NCBI GenBank assembly: GCA_021399345.1
Contig: JAAFKI010000127.1
Coordinates: 1-39,719 of the forward strand
Direction of reading: 5' to 3'
Source of the DNA: Candidatus Heimdallarchaeota archaeon
Lineage (GTDB): Archaea > Asgardarchaeota > Heimdallarchaeia > Heimdallarchaeales > Heimdallarchaeaceae
Length of the DNA: 39,719 bases
The position numbers and the translations under genes are program-made. Shown here piece by piece: positions 5,438 to 20,837 of the stretch; the stretch's first letter is position 1; each line of letters begins with the position of its first letter. A model generated the notes under the pieces. That model was given only the letters and a program-made list of their open reading frames with translations. It ran no database searches and had not been told where the DNA came from.

Positions 5438-6385
5438 TCAAATAAAACCTTTTCTCATTACGTACTCAGAAGGATCGATTTTGAGGATTTTAGTAATAAT
5501 ACTTTCTAGAATACCAAAATCAGACATGTCTTGAACTTGCTCACTAATAAGGTCCAATAATCTCCTAGCTTCCTCTTGACTATCCGTATCATGGATGATT
5601 AAAGAATAAATATAATCGTTCTCTGTTTTAATGATATATTTGTAATCACCAGATTGCAGATATTGTAGAACTCCTGTTTTACCAAAAATACGCTGGCTGA
5701 AACTCTCAATTGCAGACAAAAAGCCAGCTAATAATGATGGGTCTTCTTCTAAATCCATCTTATCGATTTCCAAAATAGGAAAACCTTCTATGTCTGCTAG
5801 CATGAACATATGGGGATCAATACTCCTTTTAGCAACAACTTTAGCTGCATTATTTACGAGCCATTGAAGAGCATCTTCCATATTTTCTCCGGTTTTCATG
5901 GATGTTTTGAAAAACTGATAGGAAGCATTTTCTTTTTCAGCAAGTTTGAAGAGTTCAAGATGATTGATGATCGTTTCGAGATCAACACTTTCTTCTAAAT
6001 CTGACTTATTACATAGGAAAAGAATAGTAAATTCATCAGCAGAATCTTTGAGATTGATACTTTTCCAGAACTCTTCCTTGGCTAAATCAAATTGGTCAGG
6101 GTCAGCTGAATCGATGATGAAAATCACCCCATATGCCAACCTTGTATACGTTTCCCAAATTGTCTGTCTGTAGCTAACATGCCCTCCCAGATCAAAAAGA
6201 TCAAATCGAGCATCTCCTATCCTTACTGTCTCAAATTGCATTCCAAGAGTTGGTTTAGTTTCTAAAAACTCTCCAGTTTTGATACGTCTGACTAAAGAAG
6301 TCTTGCCTGCTTGAGGTAAACCTATCACAACTAAAGGAATGCCTCTCTTATCAAAAGACAATATTTCTGAACTTCTAGTCTGCAT
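5438..6385 (-). CDS. Arf-like small GTPase fused to C-terminal longin/roadblock-like domain
   Basis: G1 GLPQAGKT, G2 KPTLG, G3 DLGGH, G4 NKSD, G5 TSMK; C-terminal LADIEGFPI...LLAGFLSAIESFSQRIFG. Confidence 0.9.
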   Translation of the reverse strand: MQTRSSEILSFDKRGIPLVVIGLPQAGKTSLVRRIKTGEFLETKPTLGMQFETVRIGDARFDLFDLGGHVSYRQTIWETYTRLAYGVIFIIDSADPDQFDLAKEEFWKSINLKDSADEFTILFLCNKSDLEESVDLETIINHLELFKLAEKENASYQFFKTSMKTGENMEDALQWLVNNAAKVVAKRSIDPHMFMLADIEGFPILEIDKMDLEEDPSLLAGFLSAIESFSQRIFGKTGVLQYLQSGDYKYIIKTENDYIYSLIIHDTDSQEEARRLLDLISEQVQDMSDFGILESIITKILKIDPSEYVMRKGFI

Positions 6386-6700: not shown

Positions 6701-9457
6701 GTGTGTATTTATATGAACAGACGAAAATCAATGAAAACAACATTCATTATTCTACTTTTGACATTTTCAATGATTGTGGGATCTAATCAAGCTGCACAAG
6801 CTCTAAATTACAATCAAGATCCCTCTGATCAAGAAGTGCAACAAGTAGTAACTGAACCGGCACAAAATGAAGTGGGATTGGAACAAACGGAAGATACAAT
6901 CGAAATATGGATTGTACAAGATTTTGTGATAACGGTGTATGACTTAGCATTTATAGAATGTCATGTGTTAAGTCTTTATGGAATTGAAATTGACGTAGAT
7001 ATTGAACTATGGATTCAATATGATAATGGTAGTGTTTACCTCATTTATCAAGAATCAAGAGTATTATTTCCTTATTTAGAATACGTCTTTAATGTAACTC
7101 ATTCATTCACATCAATAGGTGTACACTTAGTTAATCTAAAAGTGATGGATTTAGTACATCAACAAGAAGTTACAACTGTGTGCTACTGGGAAGTTATTGA
7201 TGGCTATTTTGAAATATATATTTATCAAGACTACGAAGCACAAGTCGGAATAGAAATTAAAATGGAGATATACATCTACAATGGGTATGCCATTGCGAAA
7301 GAATTGTATATTGAAGTATTAATTGATGGCGGCTTAGGTCCAGTACAAATATATGAAGAAACCACGTGGGTGGCTGCTTATGATGTGCTGATAATAGTAG
7401 TCTATTGGACCTTTGTAGTGGCAGGTATTTATGATGTGATTGTAGAAGTTATGGATATTTTAGAACAAAAAGAATGGTATGCTTATTGCTACTGGGAAGT
7501 ATTTGATGGGTTCATTGATATTGTAATTGAGCAAAACTATGAAGCTTGGATTGGCGTTGAAGAAAGAATACAGATCTGGGTTTACAACTACTATGCTATC
7601 GATATTGAGGCCGATGTCTCTGTTTGGATTACGAACGGAACACATACTTTCGAGATATATTTCAACGTTCTTGTGACAATAAATGCTGGGACGTATTTTA
7701 TGGACGAAATCTTTTATACATTCATCTATGAAGGATTTTGGGAACTCTATGTAGAAGTTTATGTAATTGAGTTCGATATTACATGGAGAGAATATTGTCT
7801 AGAAGGATGGTGGATCTATGGAGGATTCATAGATGTTTGGATCTACCAACAATACGAAGTTTTCGTTTCTGAAGAAGCAATTATGTATTGTTGGGTCATG
7901 AGCAATTATGCTGTTGATCGAGATATAGCTATTGAAGTGTGGATAACTAATGCAACGCATAGCATCCTGATATATGGAGAGACTACGGATATCGCTCCTG
8001 GAGAAGTGTATAACTTTACGGTATACTGGGTGTTCCTTTATGCAGATTATTGGGATGTAAAAATAGTTGTTATCGATTTATTCTCAGGTATATTTTATGT
8101 AGATTATTGCTATTGGTACGTCTATTGGGGATATTTTGAACTCTATATTTACCAAGAATACTATGGATTACTAGATCAAGAACTATGGATGATGTTTGAG
8201 ATATACAATTTCTATGCAGTAGAGAAGACTGTAGGTGTTGAAATACTCATTTTCGATGGAGTAGACTATGTTCAACTATACTATGAAATTGTACTGATAG
8301 ATGCACTTGGATTCTATTTCTTTGAACTTTGGTACGTATTTGCAATGGTAGGTTACTATGATGTGATACTAATCGTAACGGAGGTAGATACTGGAATAGT
8401 TTGGATAGAATATTGTTGGTGGTGGATCTATGCTGAATATCTTGACATCTGGATTGTCCAAGATATGGAAGCTTCAGTTGGCGAAGAAGTCCTTATGGAA
8501 TTCTGGATAGTAAACTACTACTCAATTGAAATGGATTTAACAGTTGAAGTATGGATAAGTGGTGATACGGATCCAATTATTTCTGATACGGTGATAATCC
8601 CAGCTAATGGTATCTACACATTCACATTGCCTTATACATTCCTCTACGAAGGATTTTACACTGTAACCTTGATTGTAATAGATAATGCAACAGGTGCCCA
8701 ATGGGTAGAGTACTGTCGATGGAGCATCTATGAAGGATTCATTGAAGTCTGGATAATTCAGGACTATGATGCTGTTGTAGGCCAAGAAGTATGGATGCAA
8801 TTCTATGCACAGAGCTACTATAGTTATGATGTACCAATTTACGTAGAAGTAAGAATAGATACGGGTTACGGAATTGTTATACTGTTTACAGATTCCTTGG
8901 TTTTACTATCTTATCAATTACTCATGTGGAACCTGAGTTATATATTCATGAATCCAGGAATATTCCATATCTACTTTGTAGTAATTGAATTACAAACAGG
9001 AAATGTTTGGATAGCTGAATGCCGTTGGTATATCCATGATGATGGTTGGCTAGACATATGGATTGAACAGGGTTATTATGGAGAAACAGGGGTAAACTAC
9101 CTTATGCAATTTGGAGTAAGTAATCTCTATTCAATAGACAAAGATCTTATTCTCGTAGTAAAAATAGTACAAGGAAGTGACTCGTGGATAGCCCATAATG
9201 AATCGAAATTGGTACTGTCGATGACAACGTACAGTTTCGATGTCAATTGGATGTTTGTAAACGACGGTTGGTATGATGTTTACTTCATAGTTACTGATGT
9301 CGTAACAGGAATCGTTCAAACATTGGATTGTTGGTGGAAGATTGAGGATGCAGTCATTATACCTGAATTCAGTGCTATAACTCTGATACCAATTCTAGGA
9401 GCTCTTTCTGCAGCAGTCTATCTAGCACTTAGAAGGAAAAGGAAACTAACTCACTAA
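6701..9457 (+). CDS. Cell-surface protein with 8 tandem ~102-aa Ig-like repeats and PEF-CTERM-type sorting tail (start probably ATG 6713 or 6731)
   Basis: Signal peptide, 8 beta-rich repeats, C-terminal IPEF + TM helix + RRKRK. Confidence 0.85.
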   Translation: MCIYMNRRKSMKTTFIILLLTFSMIVGSNQAAQALNYNQDPSDQEVQQVVTEPAQNEVGLEQTEDTIEIWIVQDFVITVYDLAFIECHVLSLYGIEIDVDIELWIQYDNGSVYLIYQESRVLFPYLEYVFNVTHSFTSIGVHLVNLKVMDLVHQQEVTTVCYWEVIDGYFEIYIYQDYEAQVGIEIKMEIYIYNGYAIAKELYIEVLIDGGLGPVQIYEETTWVAAYDVLIIVVYWTFVVAGIYDVIVEVMDILEQKEWYAYCYWEVFDGFIDIVIEQNYEAWIGVEERIQIWVYNYYAIDIEADVSVWITNGTHTFEIYFNVLVTINAGTYFMDEIFYTFIYEGFWELYVEVYVIEFDITWREYCLEGWWIYGGFIDVWIYQQYEVFVSEEAIMYCWVMSNYAVDRDIAIEVWITNATHSILIYGETTDIAPGEVYNFTVYWVFLYADYWDVKIVVIDLFSGIFYVDYCYWYVYWGYFELYIYQEYYGLLDQELWMMFEIYNFYAVEKTVGVEILIFDGVDYVQLYYEIVLIDALGFYFFELWYVFAMVGYYDVILIVTEVDTGIVWIEYCWWWIYAEYLDIWIVQDMEASVGEEVLMEFWIVNYYSIEMDLTVEVWISGDTDPIISDTVIIPANGIYTFTLPYTFLYEGFYTVTLIVIDNATGAQWVEYCRWSIYEGFIEVWIIQDYDAVVGQEVWMQFYAQSYYSYDVPIYVEVRIDTGYGIVILFTDSLVLLSYQLLMWNLSYIFMNPGIFHIYFVVIELQTGNVWIAECRWYIHDDGWLDIWIEQGYYGETGVNYLMQFGVSNLYSIDKDLILVVKIVQGSDSWIAHNESKLVLSMTTYSFDVNWMFVNDGWYDVYFIVTDVVTGIVQTLDCWWKIEDAVIIPEFSAITLIPILGALSAAVYLALRRKRKLTH

Positions 9458-12907: not shown

Positions 12908-14944
12908 TCAATTCTTCTTTTTCTTTAAGTAACATGTAACAGCAATGACACAAACTATTGTTGAGATACTGATGATTCTAGAAATCTCTGGAATTTGTAT
13001 CATTAGAGGATAAGGATCTATTGCATTCCCTAGACCACCAATTTCATATGGGCCTAAACCGCTATAATCTGACCAGAAATTGCCTTCTGTTGTTATTTCA
13101 TCATACCATTGATTATTAGGTGAATCATCATATGCTTGTATATTTCCTTGGTTGTTGTTTATGAAATTATTATGATGGATAGTAAAGAAGTTACAATAAT
13201 CCAGGTCTACTCCAGAATCTAAGTTATTTGTGAAAGTATTATAAGATATCAAACTGTCTTCAGAATGATGTCCTTGTATTCCCATATTTGTCTCTTGAAT
13301 CCAATTTTCTGAAACTGAACAATTATCTGAATAAGATATGTAAACTCCATATGATAAGTAAATACCTTCACCTACAGATTTGAAACCAGTTCTACCAATA
13401 ATCGTACTGGTTTTAATCTTATTAAAATTAGAGTAATCAAACATTACTGATCCAACTAATTCGTTGAAATTACAATTCACTATATTAGTGGAGTTTGTTT
13501 TAGTTAGATAAATTCCTAGCTTTGAGTTGGAAAACTCAGAATCAGAAATTGAGATGTTTAAACACTCAACCAATCTTATACATACATAAACCTTGCTTAT
13601 TTCCTGTGAACTTACAATTATATTATTGCAACGTACAAAAATAAGTTGTCCATATTCTGGAGCATTCAAAGATAAATAAGAAACATTGAAGAAGAAGCCT
13701 AGTTCTTTTCCATTTACAATATTATCATTTATTGATAATCCAACAGGGGCATCAAAATATAGATTTCCAATGATGAAACTACTATTTTCAAAAATATTTC
13801 TTTCTAAGTTGAAATAATCATTTTTTGAAATATAAGATATTGCTCCCATATACGTATCTGAGATGTTGTTGGAAGTGATAGAGCAAAAAGATGTTTCATC
13901 AACATAAATTCCAATATAACAATTTTCAAAAATATTATCTTTCAGAACGATATTATATCCATTTTGTATTTGACAACCCCTTTTCTCGTTGTACAAAAAG
14001 TTATTATTTTCAACTGTCATGTTTGAACATTCAGATAGAGATAAACCCATATTCACTTCTATAAAATTTTGGTTTTTAATAGTTATATTTTCAGAAAGGT
14101 AAATAAATATTTGACTATAGTCTGGGGTATCGATTTGAGTGTTTGAAATATTAAGTAAAAACAATATTGGTTTGTTATTAACAATATTATCTTCTACTAT
14201 AATGTTCTCAAAACCTATATCGTAACGAATTTTCTGTAATTCAAAACTACAACCTGAGCAATTATTACCTGCAACATATGTTGAGGGATGGATATCATCT
14301 ATAAGGATTCCAGGATAATATCCATAAGTTTCTTTTTCACACTTATTATCTCTTATATCTGCTGCATAGCACCCATAAACACGAATTCCTCTGAAACGAA
14401 AACCTAATACTTGATTGTTTTTAATTATAGTCTCCTGATTACGAGAAGAAAAAATCCCATTATCGCAATTTGTAAATAAGTTATTGGTTATGTTAGCTAA
14501 GTGACAATAAGAAGCAAATATACCTGAATTTGAATCGGTGAAATTATTTCCTGATATTTCTACATCTGAGCTAGACATATCATCTAAAGAAATTGCGTAT
14601 CCTATTTGATCAAAATTACAATTTAATATTGAAATACTATATGTTATATTTTCAACAAAAATCCCATACATAGAACCAATTATTTCGAGGTTCTGAAAGA
14701 TGAAAGGATTGTTTTTTGAACCATCACCAGGTAATCCCAAACTCAACAATTCTTCATTAGAGTGAATGATAATAGAATCATGTGGGGTGTATGTTTCTGA
14801 ATATCCAACCATCTCATTACTTCTATTTTCTAGTTGGACAATAATTAACTCATTTTCATAATTCAGAATTGGAATCATTAAAACGAATATGGTTAAAAAA
14901 AGTAATAGTCCCTTTATCTTCATCTTTTTTACACTAAATAACAA
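12908..14944 (-). CDS. Secreted NosD/parallel beta-helix protein with C-terminal membrane anchor
   Basis: PGDGSKNNPFI, many N-x-I-x-x-N repeats, GNFWSDY...DPYPL, C-terminal IPEI + TM + KKKK. Confidence 0.85.
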   Translation of the reverse strand: MLFSVKKMKIKGLLLFLTIFVLMIPILNYENELIIVQLENRSNEMVGYSETYTPHDSIIIHSNEELLSLGLPGDGSKNNPFIFQNLEIIGSMYGIFVENITYSISILNCNFDQIGYAISLDDMSSSDVEISGNNFTDSNSGIFASYCHLANITNNLFTNCDNGIFSSRNQETIIKNNQVLGFRFRGIRVYGCYAADIRDNKCEKETYGYYPGILIDDIHPSTYVAGNNCSGCSFELQKIRYDIGFENIIVEDNIVNNKPILFLLNISNTQIDTPDYSQIFIYLSENITIKNQNFIEVNMGLSLSECSNMTVENNNFLYNEKRGCQIQNGYNIVLKDNIFENCYIGIYVDETSFCSITSNNISDTYMGAISYISKNDYFNLERNIFENSSFIIGNLYFDAPVGLSINDNIVNGKELGFFFNVSYLSLNAPEYGQLIFVRCNNIIVSSQEISKVYVCIRLVECLNISISDSEFSNSKLGIYLTKTNSTNIVNCNFNELVGSVMFDYSNFNKIKTSTIIGRTGFKSVGEGIYLSYGVYISYSDNCSVSENWIQETNMGIQGHHSEDSLISYNTFTNNLDSGVDLDYCNFFTIHHNNFINNNQGNIQAYDDSPNNQWYDEITTEGNFWSDYSGLGPYEIGGLGNAIDPYPLMIQIPEISRIISISTIVCVIAVTCYLKKKKN

Positions 14945-18056: not shown

Positions 18057-20837
18057 ATGCGTGAAGGATTGACTTTTGATGATGTACTTTTAGTACCAAA
18101 ACACTCCTCTGTTACATCTAGAAAAGATGTTGAAACCTCTACTTATCTTTCTCGAAATATAAAATTAAATGTACCCATTGTAAGTTCTAACATGGATACA
18201 GTAACAGAAAGTAAGATGGCTATAGTTATGGCCCAGATGGGAGCTATTGGAATCATTCATCGTTTTATGTCTGTTGAGGATCATGTTTCTGAAGTAACTA
18301 AGGTTAAACGTTCAGAAATGATTAGAATAGATCACCCTTATCGTTTAAAACCTGAAAACACTTTAGACGATGCTAGAGCTATGATGGAAGACAAAGGGAT
18401 TTCTGGAATTCTGGTCACAGATCCCTCTGATAAACTAGTAGGTATTCTTACAACTCGAGATATTATGTTTGAAGAAGATGGGGTAACTAAAATCTCTGAT
18501 TTAATGTCAACTGATCTGGTTACTGCTGCTCCTGATATAACAATTGAATCAGCTAAGGATTATCTTCAAAAGAGTAGAATAGAAAAATTACCTCTAATAG
18601 ATGAAAAAGGGTTTCTAAAAGGTTTAATCACTTCTAAAGATATTATAAAAAGTAAAGTCTTGCCTGATTCTTCTAAAGATTCTAAAGGACGATTACTAGT
18701 TGCAGCTGCTATAGGTGTTCGTGGAGATTATCTGCAACGAGCTGAAAAACTTGTCAATGCTGATGCTGATGCTCTAGTTATTGATATAGCTCATGGGCAT
18801 TCAGATTTGGCTATTAATACTGTCAAAGCTATACGAAAGAATTTTAGTGATATAGAGATTATTGCGGGTAATGTGGCTACTAGTGAGGGAACAAAAGCTC
18901 TCATTGAAGCTGGTTGTGATGCAGTTAAAGTAGGTGTGGGACCTGGAAGTATTTGTCTCGAGGGTGACACTCTAATTACTATGTCAGATTATTCAGTTAA
19001 GAGAATCAAAGATGTAGTACCAGGAGACATAGTAGTTACTCATAGAAATAACAAGCGTTCAGTTACAAAGAAATATACCCGGAAATTTAGTGGGGAAATT
19101 TACCATATTAACATCAAAGGTTCTCCTGGAAATATAAAAATCACCTCAGAGCATCCAATTTTAGCAATTTCCTTCGATTCTGATGAAGAGAAGATAAAGA
19201 AGTTCGGTTCTAAATATTATTTTGATAAAAAGAAACATAATCTAGGCTTAGAATGGCTTGAAGCTTCATCACTTAAACGTGGAGATTTGGTTGTTGTTCC
19301 TAGGACTATAGCAAGAAAAACAAAGAAACTTCAATTTGACTTGACCGATTATGTTAACTGTTTGTTTGATAATAGAAAAGTGTGGTCAAACAAAGTAGGA
19401 TTCAACCCAAACAAAGAATCTTTTATAGATTTAGCTATCCGTTTTTCAACAACAAAAAGAATTATAGGCAATATAGTTAAAGGTGGTAAGTCTCAAGATA
19501 TGATTTTAAACCAAGAAGTTAATGAATATCTTGATTCAGTTGATTATCAGAGAACAATAGATCCACTAATTATCAATCGTTATATAGAATTAAATGAAGA
19601 TTTAATGAGATTATTTGGATATTTTATTGCTGAAGGTTATGTTATTGGAGCAAAAAACAACAGACAACTAGTTTTTGGTTTTTCAAAAGATGAAACTGAT
19701 TATCATAATGATGTAAAAACTTTAGTTAAGAAAACCTTTGGATATGCTAATACAAAAGTTAGATATCATAAAACTAAAAATTCAGCAGAAGTTAGAGTTT
19801 ATTCTCATTATATTGCCTCTTTCTTTGAAAGAATCTTTCCTTTAGGTTCAAAAAACAAGAAATTTCCAAGTTTTATTTTTGAACAAGAAAATTATCTTTT
19901 GATTGATTTAATTAAAGGAGCCTTTTATGGAGATGGAAGCATTAGTGAAAAAAGAAAAGCAACATACAAAACTGTATCTGCATCTCTTGCTTTTCAAATG
20001 TCTGAGATTCTTATTCGCTTAGGATTTCTACCAACTATTTCAAAAGAGAAGAAAAGAGAAGAGAAATGGTCAGATATTTACAAAATCATTATTTCAGGTT
20101 CCCAATATGATAGATTTATGGATACATTTTATCCAAGTGAGGAGTATCTGAAAGTGACCAAATCTGCTCAGCAAATTTGGGCTGATGAGTCATATATCTA
20201 TCTGAAAGTTCATTCTGTTGAAAAAGAAAACAAGGAAACATTCGTCTATAATCTGGAAGTAGATGAAGACAATTCGTATTTGACTAACAGAATAGCAGTT
20301 CATAATTGCATTACAAGAATAGTTACTGGTAGCGGTGTTCCTCAATTAACAGCCATTATGGATTGTGCTAAAGCTGCTAAAGACTTTGATGTTCCTATCA
20401 TCGCTGACGGCGGTGTACGCAACTCAGGAGATTTGACTAAGGCTATTGCAGCAGGAGCTTCAACTGTCATGATTGGTGGTCTTTTCGCTGGAACAGAAGA
20501 GAGTCCTGGAACTACCATTTTGAGATCTGGAAGAAGCTATAAAGTCGTTCGAGGAATGGCAAGTTTGGGCGCTACTTTAGGAAGAGAAGCTAGAGAGAAA
20601 AAAGGTTCTTTCGATGAGCTAGATATGGGGAGTGTAGTTCCTGAAGGAGTAGAAGCTGTTGTACCTTATCGTGGATCAGCAGCAGATGTTCTTGAACAAC
20701 TTGTTGGAGGACTCAGAAGTGGTATCTCTTATTGTGGTGCAACTAACCTCAAAGCGATGCAAGCTAATGCTGAGTTTATCAAAATAACAACTGCTGGACG
20801 TGCAGAGTCAGCTTCACATGATGTTGAGCGTATATAA
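18057..20837 (+). CDS. guaB: IMP dehydrogenase with CBS pair, interrupted by an intein
   Basis: [31 protein letters not shown]|CITR, ADGG, RGMAS, VPEGVE; exteins total 475 aa. Confidence 0.97.
18954..20306 (+). mobile_element. Intein (451 aa) with LAGLIDADG homing endonuclease
   Basis: Starts CLEGDT, block B ITSEHPIL, endonuclease motifs LFGYFIAEG and IKGAFYGDG, ends VYNLEV...AVHN followed by extein Cys. Confidence 0.95.

Follow-up and report, generated by a model that had tools for sequence, protein, structure and literature searches.

A candidate Cys-Gln thioester clamp in the tandem Ig-like stalk repeats of an Asgard archaeal surface protein

The stretch of DNA analysed here, referred to as the window, comprises the 39,719 nucleotides (G+C about 33%) of contig JAAFKI010000127.1 from Candidatus Heimdallarchaeota archaeon, whose metagenome-assembled genome is 3.27 Mb in size and 88.6% complete. 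On the forward strand, positions 6713 to 9457 encode a predicted surface protein of 914 amino acids with eight tandem immunoglobulin (Ig)-like repeats. Each repeat has a Gln at the end of its first strand and a Cys in its last strand. A sequence-only reading of the window had proposed that these two residues join spontaneously into one thioester per domain. We describe the gene, the family to which its repeats belong and the geometry of the Gln-Cys pair, and weigh whether the pair is likely to form a covalent cross-link.

The mechanically called open reading frame (ORF) extends on the forward strand from a GTG at 6701 to position 9457 and comprises 918 amino acids beginning with VCIY. The true start is most likely the ATG at 6713, because orthologues begin with MNRRK at the equivalent Met, and Cys2 of the GTG-started ORF is therefore probably not in the protein; the stop codon is TAA at 9455-9457. 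Residue numbers are counted throughout from the GTG at 6701, in the 918-residue ORF. The protein opens with a predicted signal peptide (6713-6802, residues 5-34), which has a basic N-terminus, a hydrophobic core and an AQA motif that is kept in orthologues, and cleavage probably occurs after this motif (GSNQAAQA/LNY). An acidic linker of 28 residues (6803-6886, residues 35-62) follows and includes no head domain; it is of low confidence in the full-length AlphaFold2 model, where residues 1-63 have predicted local distance difference test (pLDDT) values below 50.

The eight repeats, each 100-105 residues long (about 102) and joined by linkers of about four residues, occupy most of the remaining protein. 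Repeat 1 (6887-7195, residues 63-165) has Gln73 in the motif IWIVQ (codon CAA, 6917-6919) and Cys161 (TGC, 7181-7183), and repeat 2 (7196-7501, residues 166-267) has Gln176 in IYIYQ (7226-7228) and Cys263 (7487-7489). Within repeat 3 (7502-7816, residues 268-372), Gln278 closes the motif IVIEQ (7532-7534) and Cys366 (7796-7798) is followed by a two-residue insertion (YCLEGW). Repeat 4 (7817-8122, residues 373-474), the repeat that was also folded alone, carries Gln383 in VWIYQ (7847-7849) and Cys470 (8108-8110); repeat 5 (8123-8428, residues 475-576) carries Gln485 in LYIYQ (8153-8155) and Cys572 (8414-8416). The corresponding pairs are Gln587 in IWIVQ (8459-8461) and Cys672 (8714-8716) for repeat 6 (8429-8728, residues 577-676), Gln687 in VWIIQ (8759-8761) and Cys774 (9020-9022) for repeat 7 (8729-9037, residues 677-779), and Gln790 in IWIEQ (9068-9070) and Cys877 (9329-9331) for repeat 8 (9038-9352, residues 780-884). 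A C-terminal sorting and anchor tail (9353-9454) completes the protein.

All eight repeats and their Gln and Cys motifs were found exactly where the sequence-only reading had placed them, and the pairwise identity of only 20-38% confirms the strong divergence that it had described. Within a repeat the Gln and the Cys are 85-88 residues apart, and 15-17 residues separate the Cys of one repeat from the Gln of the next. The statement that six repeats contain a single Cys was likewise borne out. A second Cys occurs only in repeats 1 (Cys87, 6959-6961) and 4 (Cys397, 7889-7891), in both cases at domain position 25 in the core of strand B, where the consensus residue is Phe, and both extra cysteines are kept in orthologues.

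When the 99 repeat copies of 13 orthologues (57-93% identical overall) are aligned, Gln and Cys are the sole invariant columns. Twelve orthologues in this identity range retain all 16 residues, with eight Gln and eight Cys in every full-length one. Among 133 non-orthologous full domains, the Gln is present in 94% and the Cys in 90%, a level rivalled only by a turn Gly (95%), and exactly one Cys is found in 104 of the 133. Judged from these alignments, the conservation of the two residues is far beyond chance.

Conservation of Gln and Cys together in homologues had been set beforehand as a test of the proposed cross-link, and the two residues indeed proved to be both co-kept and co-lost. With a broader profile, 150 of 188 domains had both residues, 13 had only the Gln, four had only the Cys and 21 had neither. 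Where only the Gln was kept, the Cys site was occupied by Ser (five domains), Asn (five), Asp, Tyr or a gap; where only the Cys was kept, the Gln site held His (twice), Met or Glu. In a gap-free set that included the orthologues, the respective counts were 240, 11, 3 and 9 (Fisher p = 2e-9, phylogeny ignored). Such p-values overstate the case, because phylogeny is ignored and independent events are few. The direction is clear, and across the aligned domains Gln and Cys appear to be lost together far above chance.

When repeat 4 was folded alone by AlphaFold2 with the 99-repeat alignment, the model (pLDDT 93.7) contained seven strands: A (positions 5-11), B (20-29), C (35-44), C' (49-59), E (64-72), F (78-87) and G (93-101). 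Strand A closes with Gln11, and Cys98 falls within strand G, in agreement with the positions that had been proposed for the two residues in the first and last strands. The arrangement recurs in all eight repeats of the full-length model (pLDDT 75.9): strand A stops at the Gln or one residue earlier, and next comes a three-residue A' strand in all repeats but one, which has a two-residue bridge instead. The model, the structural matches and the strand pairings obtained from direct coupling analysis (DCA) all describe a seven-strand sandwich of the fibronectin type III (FnIII)/Ig type.

By strand periodicity, the Gln shares its phase with conserved inward Ile/Leu residues at -2, -4 and -6, as does the Cys with Trp/Phe at +2 and Val/Ile at +4. 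Mean-field DCA on 263-292 domains (effective number of sequences, Meff, about 190-210) ranked the Gln-Cys pair first, with a score of 3.4-3.6 vs 2.2-2.7 for the next pair. The pairs next in rank form the antiparallel B-E, C-F, F-G and C-C' ladders of the FnIII/Ig topology, and because these known pairings are reproduced, the analysis can be taken to read real contacts. The top 30 pairs of the gap-free set include eight A/A'-G pairs, all at offsets of 86-90. Therefore, A/A' and G run in parallel register with the Gln level with the Cys. The Gln is also coupled to core residues of strands F and G, and the Trp at Cys+2 to a core residue of strand B. Periodicity and coevolution together make a direct contact between the Gln and Cys side chains likely. 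An intradomain disulfide was considered as the reason for the conserved Cys and rejected. Six repeats have one Cys, and in repeats 1 and 4 the second Cys occupies position 25, which is coupled to strand F and not to the G-strand Cys.

Searches of fold libraries with the model (Foldseek on the PDB, VIA-wide and the ESM Atlas) listed only generic sandwiches of the FnIII, CARDB, macroglobulin (MG) and transglutaminase types. No thioester domain (TED), CnaB or Cpe0147-type chain was among the matches listed from these libraries. The top structural matches by VIA were the FnIII domain of RbmA (Z 13.6) and PF1109 CARDB 3IDU (Z 13.5), and MG domains of complement and alpha2-macroglobulin (A2M) were also found. 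The CARDB and RbmA matches superimposed with a root-mean-square deviation of 1.7-1.8 A over 98-100 residues, and the query-normalised Foldseek TM-score reached 0.85. The complement MG-domain matches are a coincidence of fold, because the thioester of C3 sits in a different domain.

Sequence comparison pointed in the same direction. Against Pfam, the window protein matched only PKD (PF00801), at 13.8 bits vs a cut-off of 23.5, with CARDB (PF07705) also below its cut-off; whole proteins of two relatives scored 38.7 bits for PKD (P0014) and 41.5 bits for CARDB (P0049). The family profile matched the PF1109 CARDB chains of Pyrococcus furiosus (PDB 3IDU/2KL6) at E = 2e-4; the only significant profile matches in the PDB (E = 2e-4 and 2e-3) were to PF1109 and to the FnIII-like domains of RbmA of Vibrio cholerae (4BE5/4KKQ). 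By its fold and weak sequence similarity, the repeat is thus a divergent CARDB/PKD-like sandwich, and the family can be placed, from its profile matches, as a distant and unannotated CARDB/PKD-like subfamily. Unlike this subfamily, PF1109 CARDB has a Gly at the position of the Gln. The Gln is therefore not demanded by the fold, and the Gln-Cys pair is specific to the Asgard subfamily.

A search of 1.84 billion representatives with a profile of the repeat returned 1002 matches. About 45-60 proteins cover the whole domain; the remaining matches are confined to a generic PKD-like F-strand motif (G-Y-V-V-D). Family members with a named source are all from Asgard archaea, labelled as Heimdall-, Hod-, Odin- or Thorarchaeota, and the named homologues of the window gene itself are labelled Heimdallarchaeaceae. 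Among 201 genomes sampled from the phylum, 19 had matches at E <= 1e-12, and these belong to two genera of one class: the domain occurs in 10 of 16 relatives that belong to the window genus, in the window genome itself and in eight of 10 genomes of the second genus. The window genome has no paralogue, the gene described here being its only one with the domain. The family is undescribed and, by its named members, Asgard-specific.

Nearly all full-length members combine a signal peptide with a C-terminal (S/T)PGFE motif, a hydrophobic stretch and an RRKR tail of the PGF-CTERM type, which is usually preceded by a Ser/Thr/acidic linker. Many relatives (P0017, P0018, P0021, P0022, P0031 and P0032) also have an N-terminal head of about 130-200 residues before the Gln/Cys array, with the motif LGDDYFEDFE and weak matches to Pfam Reelin_subrepeat-B; the window protein has no such head. 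Since the array sits between the signal peptide or optional head and the linker with the anchor, the Gln/Cys domain is a stalk module. The tail of the window protein has all three parts of an archaeosortase-type signal, namely IIPEF, a hydrophobic helix (residues 892-915) and RRKRK. Relative P0014 scored 18.7 bits against Pfam PGF-CTERM, just below the cut-off of 18.8, and the window protein gave no match in NCBIfam. The window protein can thus be described as all stalk, with a tail that is a PEF variant of the PGF-CTERM type. Taken together, its predicted features are those of a secreted, C-terminally anchored surface stalk of eight tandem CARDB/FnIII-like sandwiches.

The genome encodes one protein of the exosortase/archaeosortase family (PF09721, 46 bits, G000:C53:38581-39279). 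Only one other ORF in the genome ends in a PEF motif, a hydrophobic stretch and a basic tail. It lies on the reverse strand of G000:C19, has 627 amino acids and ends in ...VVPEFQQLSILLIFL...KRKKFR. This lone second ORF and the one exosortase-family gene hint at a very small PEF-CTERM sorting set.

The mature protein (6803-9352) is also extreme in its composition, with an aromaticity of 0.21, 24% Ile plus Val, 132 Asp plus Glu vs 17 Lys plus Arg, a pI of about 4.05 and a grand average of hydropathy of +0.38. The 918-residue ORF contains 95 Tyr, 44 Trp and 47 Phe; the protein is very poor in Lys and has eight N-x-S/T sequons. Tyr, Trp and acidic residues occupy the outward strand positions as well, which suggests that the protein self-associates laterally or binds glycans or minerals.

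We favour, albeit with rather less than even confidence, an autocatalytic Cys-Gln thioester clamp in each repeat. The Gln that closes strand A at the A/A' kink and the Cys in the middle of strand G would both face the core and be in contact at its A-G edge. Once the domain has folded, the thiol of the Cys would attack the side-chain amide of the Gln autocatalytically, in a water-poor, aromatic pocket formed by Ile at Gln-2 and Trp/Phe at Cys+2. Ammonia would leave, and the resulting S-(gamma-glutamyl)cysteine thioester would staple the first strand to the last. Eight such staples would create a near-continuous covalent spine resisting unfolding, shear and proteases, and this spine would have almost no extensible chain, because the stretch between Cys(n) and Gln(n+1) is so short.

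This chemistry has a precedent: thioesters arise spontaneously between Cys and Gln in bacterial TEDs, A2M and C3. Disulfides are unreliable in anoxic settings, and a clamp of this kind would suit an anoxic habitat. Metagenome contigs from marine sediment that are 90-99% identical span the whole gene, which fits such a setting. The position of the pair is also that of known cross-links, for in bacterial Ig-like stalks bonds from the first to the last strand, either isopeptides or esters, are the rule (PMC10619420, PMC12617251). Moreover, mass spectrometry of the T450C variant of Cpe0147 detected a Cys-Gln thioester that links the first strand of an Ig-like domain to its last (PMC12679949). Within the family, Cys-to-Ser variants with the Gln kept account for 4-5 domains, and Ser/Gln is a known ester-forming pair (PMC12679949). 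The further claim that one first-to-last-strand thioester per domain would constitute a fourth autocatalytic cross-link chemistry of stalks, after isopeptide, ester and disulfide, is one that we advance with slightly more reserve.

Several observations weigh against a thioester. Both ester and isopeptide domains require catalytic helpers, and the family alignment contains no conserved His, no fixed acid and no other conserved polar residue near the Gln-Cys pair. An acid at Gln+1 was tried as a helper and rejected; with a frequency of 68% where the pair is present and 61% where it is not, this acid is unlinked to the pair. The co-loss statistics hang on few independent events. Gln is kept in 11-13 domains whose Cys became Ser, Asn, Asp or Tyr, although Asn, Asp and Tyr at this site cannot cross-link to Gln. 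Since Gln persists beside these residues and Cys beside His, Met or Glu, each retains some value alone. The yield of the thioester in T450C Cpe0147 was only about 3%, and the crystal structure of this variant has the thiol beside the Gln, unreacted (PMC12679949). Published opinion also holds that thioesters are unlikely to serve in stabilisation (PMC10619420). Thioesters are, in addition, labile to amines and sulfide.

Much of this evidence would equally suit a pair that forms no bond, and we consider such a non-covalent, buried polar pair nearly as likely as the thioester clamp. The Gln at the A/A' kink would then be a buried hydrogen-bonding staple that reaches backbone groups of strands B and G and the Cys thiol, thus fixing the strand switch, with the Cys as a small polar packing partner. 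Replacements at the Cys site with the Gln kept are mostly small hydrogen-bonding residues (Ser, Asn and one Asp), and Gln-to-His occurs with the Cys kept. The lack of a conserved helper and the unreacted Cys next to Gln in the T450C crystal (PMC12679949) fit this explanation, and both co-loss and strong DCA coupling are expected of any buried polar pair. However, a buried Gln and a free extracellular Cys are rarely the top conserved residues of a beta-sandwich family, and in this family they are better conserved than the hydrophobic core, without a single exception in the 99 copies despite only 20-38% identity between repeats. PF1109 CARDB, the closest solved relative by sequence, manages with Gly at the Gln position, and a plain hydrogen-bonded pair should have drifted more often to Ser, Thr or Asn pairs.

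Two other explanations fare worse. The sequence-only reading had also raised the possibility that the domains act as multivalent covalent harpoons. In such a role, the thioester of each would be attacked by amines or hydroxyls of a partner cell or a surface, as in bacterial TEDs. The residue pair is the same as in TEDs, the protein is located at the cell surface, and its unusually aromatic outer faces could bind glycans. This version is nonetheless unsupported and very unlikely, as periodicity and couplings place the pair at the A-G edge of the core rather than in a cleft, the domain is a plain CARDB/FnIII sandwich without a ligand pocket and with no TED among the matches listed, and in other family members the Gln/Cys domains are stalk modules beneath separate heads. 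Alternatively, the pairing within a domain might be only apparent, with Cys(n) joined to Gln(n+1) across the junction or the Cys serving as a site of another modification or of metal binding. These residues are indeed only 15-17 positions apart, and each is sometimes kept without the other. We nevertheless regard such separate or inter-domain roles as quite improbable, because the Gln of repeat 1 and the Cys of repeat 8 are kept in all orthologues although neither has a neighbouring domain to pair with, both residues are also present in fragment proteins in which only one domain was scored, and the A/A'-G couplings at offsets of 86-90 are intradomain. Nor is any set of Cys or His ligands conserved in the domains of the family.

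Divergently adjoining the surface-protein gene is a gene for an Arf-family small GTPase of 315 amino acids with a C-terminal extension (5438-6385, reverse strand). The synteny of this gene with a CoA ligase gene and a downstream NAD-epimerase gene extends to two orthologous loci, L011 and a JGI contig. A dedicated modifying enzyme encoded at the locus was considered and rejected, since these shared neighbours, compared among close relatives only, suggest no cross-linking function. A NosD/right-handed beta-helix protein of 678 amino acids encoded nearby (12908-14944, reverse strand) may be another secreted or surface protein. Further downstream, an IMP dehydrogenase gene (18057-20837, forward strand) is split by an intein with a LAGLIDADG homing endonuclease (Pfam Intein_splicing and LAGLIDADG_3); the orthologous enzyme at L011 is intein-free and has 482 amino acids.

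An RNA-seq library from sediment (X20) contained one contig of 251 nucleotides that exactly matched positions of about 7437-7628 (7660 at the widest), in parts of repeats 2 and 3. This contig is no evidence of transcription, because it is chimeric, being self-joined on the opposite strand, and because the library may hold DNA. Two runs described as metatranscriptomic whole-genome shotgun (WGS) are probably DNA.

If the thioester clamp exists, it adds a new chemistry to self-cross-linking stalk domains, in which isopeptides and esters are known, whereas thioesters are confined to warhead domains distinct from the stalk. A thioester would here act for the first time as a mechanical clamp in an Ig-like fold, on surface proteins of Asgard archaea from anoxic sediment. 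Asgard archaea are the closest prokaryotic relatives of eukaryotes, and they would thus be seen to reinforce their surface proteins covalently without depending on disulfides. Such a domain would also offer a small (about 100 amino acids), Lys-free and redox-independent module for Tag/Catcher-style engineering. Should no bond form, the family would still represent a stalk domain of the CARDB-like kind that is undescribed, specific to Asgard archaea and sharply defined by a testable signature, and it would be useful as a negative control when cross-links are predicted from sequence.

Among known systems, the closest parallel is with the ester domains of Cpe0147 from Clostridium perfringens (PDB 4NI6) and of a Mobiluncus mulieris adhesin. 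These also form a tandem Ig-like surface stalk, in which each domain has a nucleophile and a Gln on its first and last strands and successive links would form a covalent spine. Unlike in the Cpe0147 type, the nucleophile here is Cys and not Thr or Ser, and the order is reversed, in that the first strand contributes the Gln and the last the nucleophile. The first 12 residues of the repeats, which span strand A, include no Thr or Ser in repeats 2-8 and a Thr in repeat 1 only, and the repeats lack the HxDxxDxxQ motif of the Cpe0147 type as well as its His base and buried acid. The two also differ in that no Pfam sequence match connects them, the listed fold matches are to CARDB/FnIII, and the host is an archaeon.

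The CnaA/CnaB and DUF11 or "CLIPPER" domains likewise are stalk repeats with an intradomain cross-link in the core, as proposed here, and have archaeosortase-type signals in archaea. DUF11 stalk domains with isopeptide bonds have been predicted in archaeal surface proteins (PMC12617251). The Asgard repeats differ in having no Lys/Asn/Glu triad, with no strand-A Lys in any repeat and no Lys at all in repeats 3, 6 and 7, and their bond would be a thioester rather than an amide. The Cys and Gln pair itself is shared with TEDs (those of the bacterial TIE proteins SfbI, Cpa and SaTIE, and the CGEQ of A2M/C3). Thioesters of TEDs and A2M form spontaneously in aromatic, water-poor surroundings. TEDs are larger and partly or wholly helical, have the Cys before the Gln and carry their reactive warhead at the protein tip. 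In contrast, the Asgard domain is an all-beta sandwich of 102 residues with the Gln before the Cys, present in eight copies in a stalk. A regular-expression search found neither C(G/x)EQ nor [YF]C... plus TQxxPhiW in the protein, which also gave no match to Pfam TED or A2M TED families at E <= 1.

The sequence-only reading knew of no such archaeal system. This statement does not hold for the broader chemistry, as archaeal A2M homologues with CxEQ, of the TED-bearing type (PMC8416519), and the predicted DUF11 isopeptide stalks have been reported, but it stands for a thioester in an Ig-like stalk domain. Our literature search found no description of the family, nor of a Cys-Gln cross-link in an Ig-like stalk domain other than that engineered in T450C Cpe0147. 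By analogy, the Asgard domain would function most like the ester domains of Cpe0147 and the isopeptide domains of the CnaB and DUF11 types, yet its residues and motifs place it outside both groups. Because thioesters of archaeal A2M and isopeptide stalks are already published, the novelty lies in the presence of a thioester-type pair within the repeat of an Ig-like stalk.

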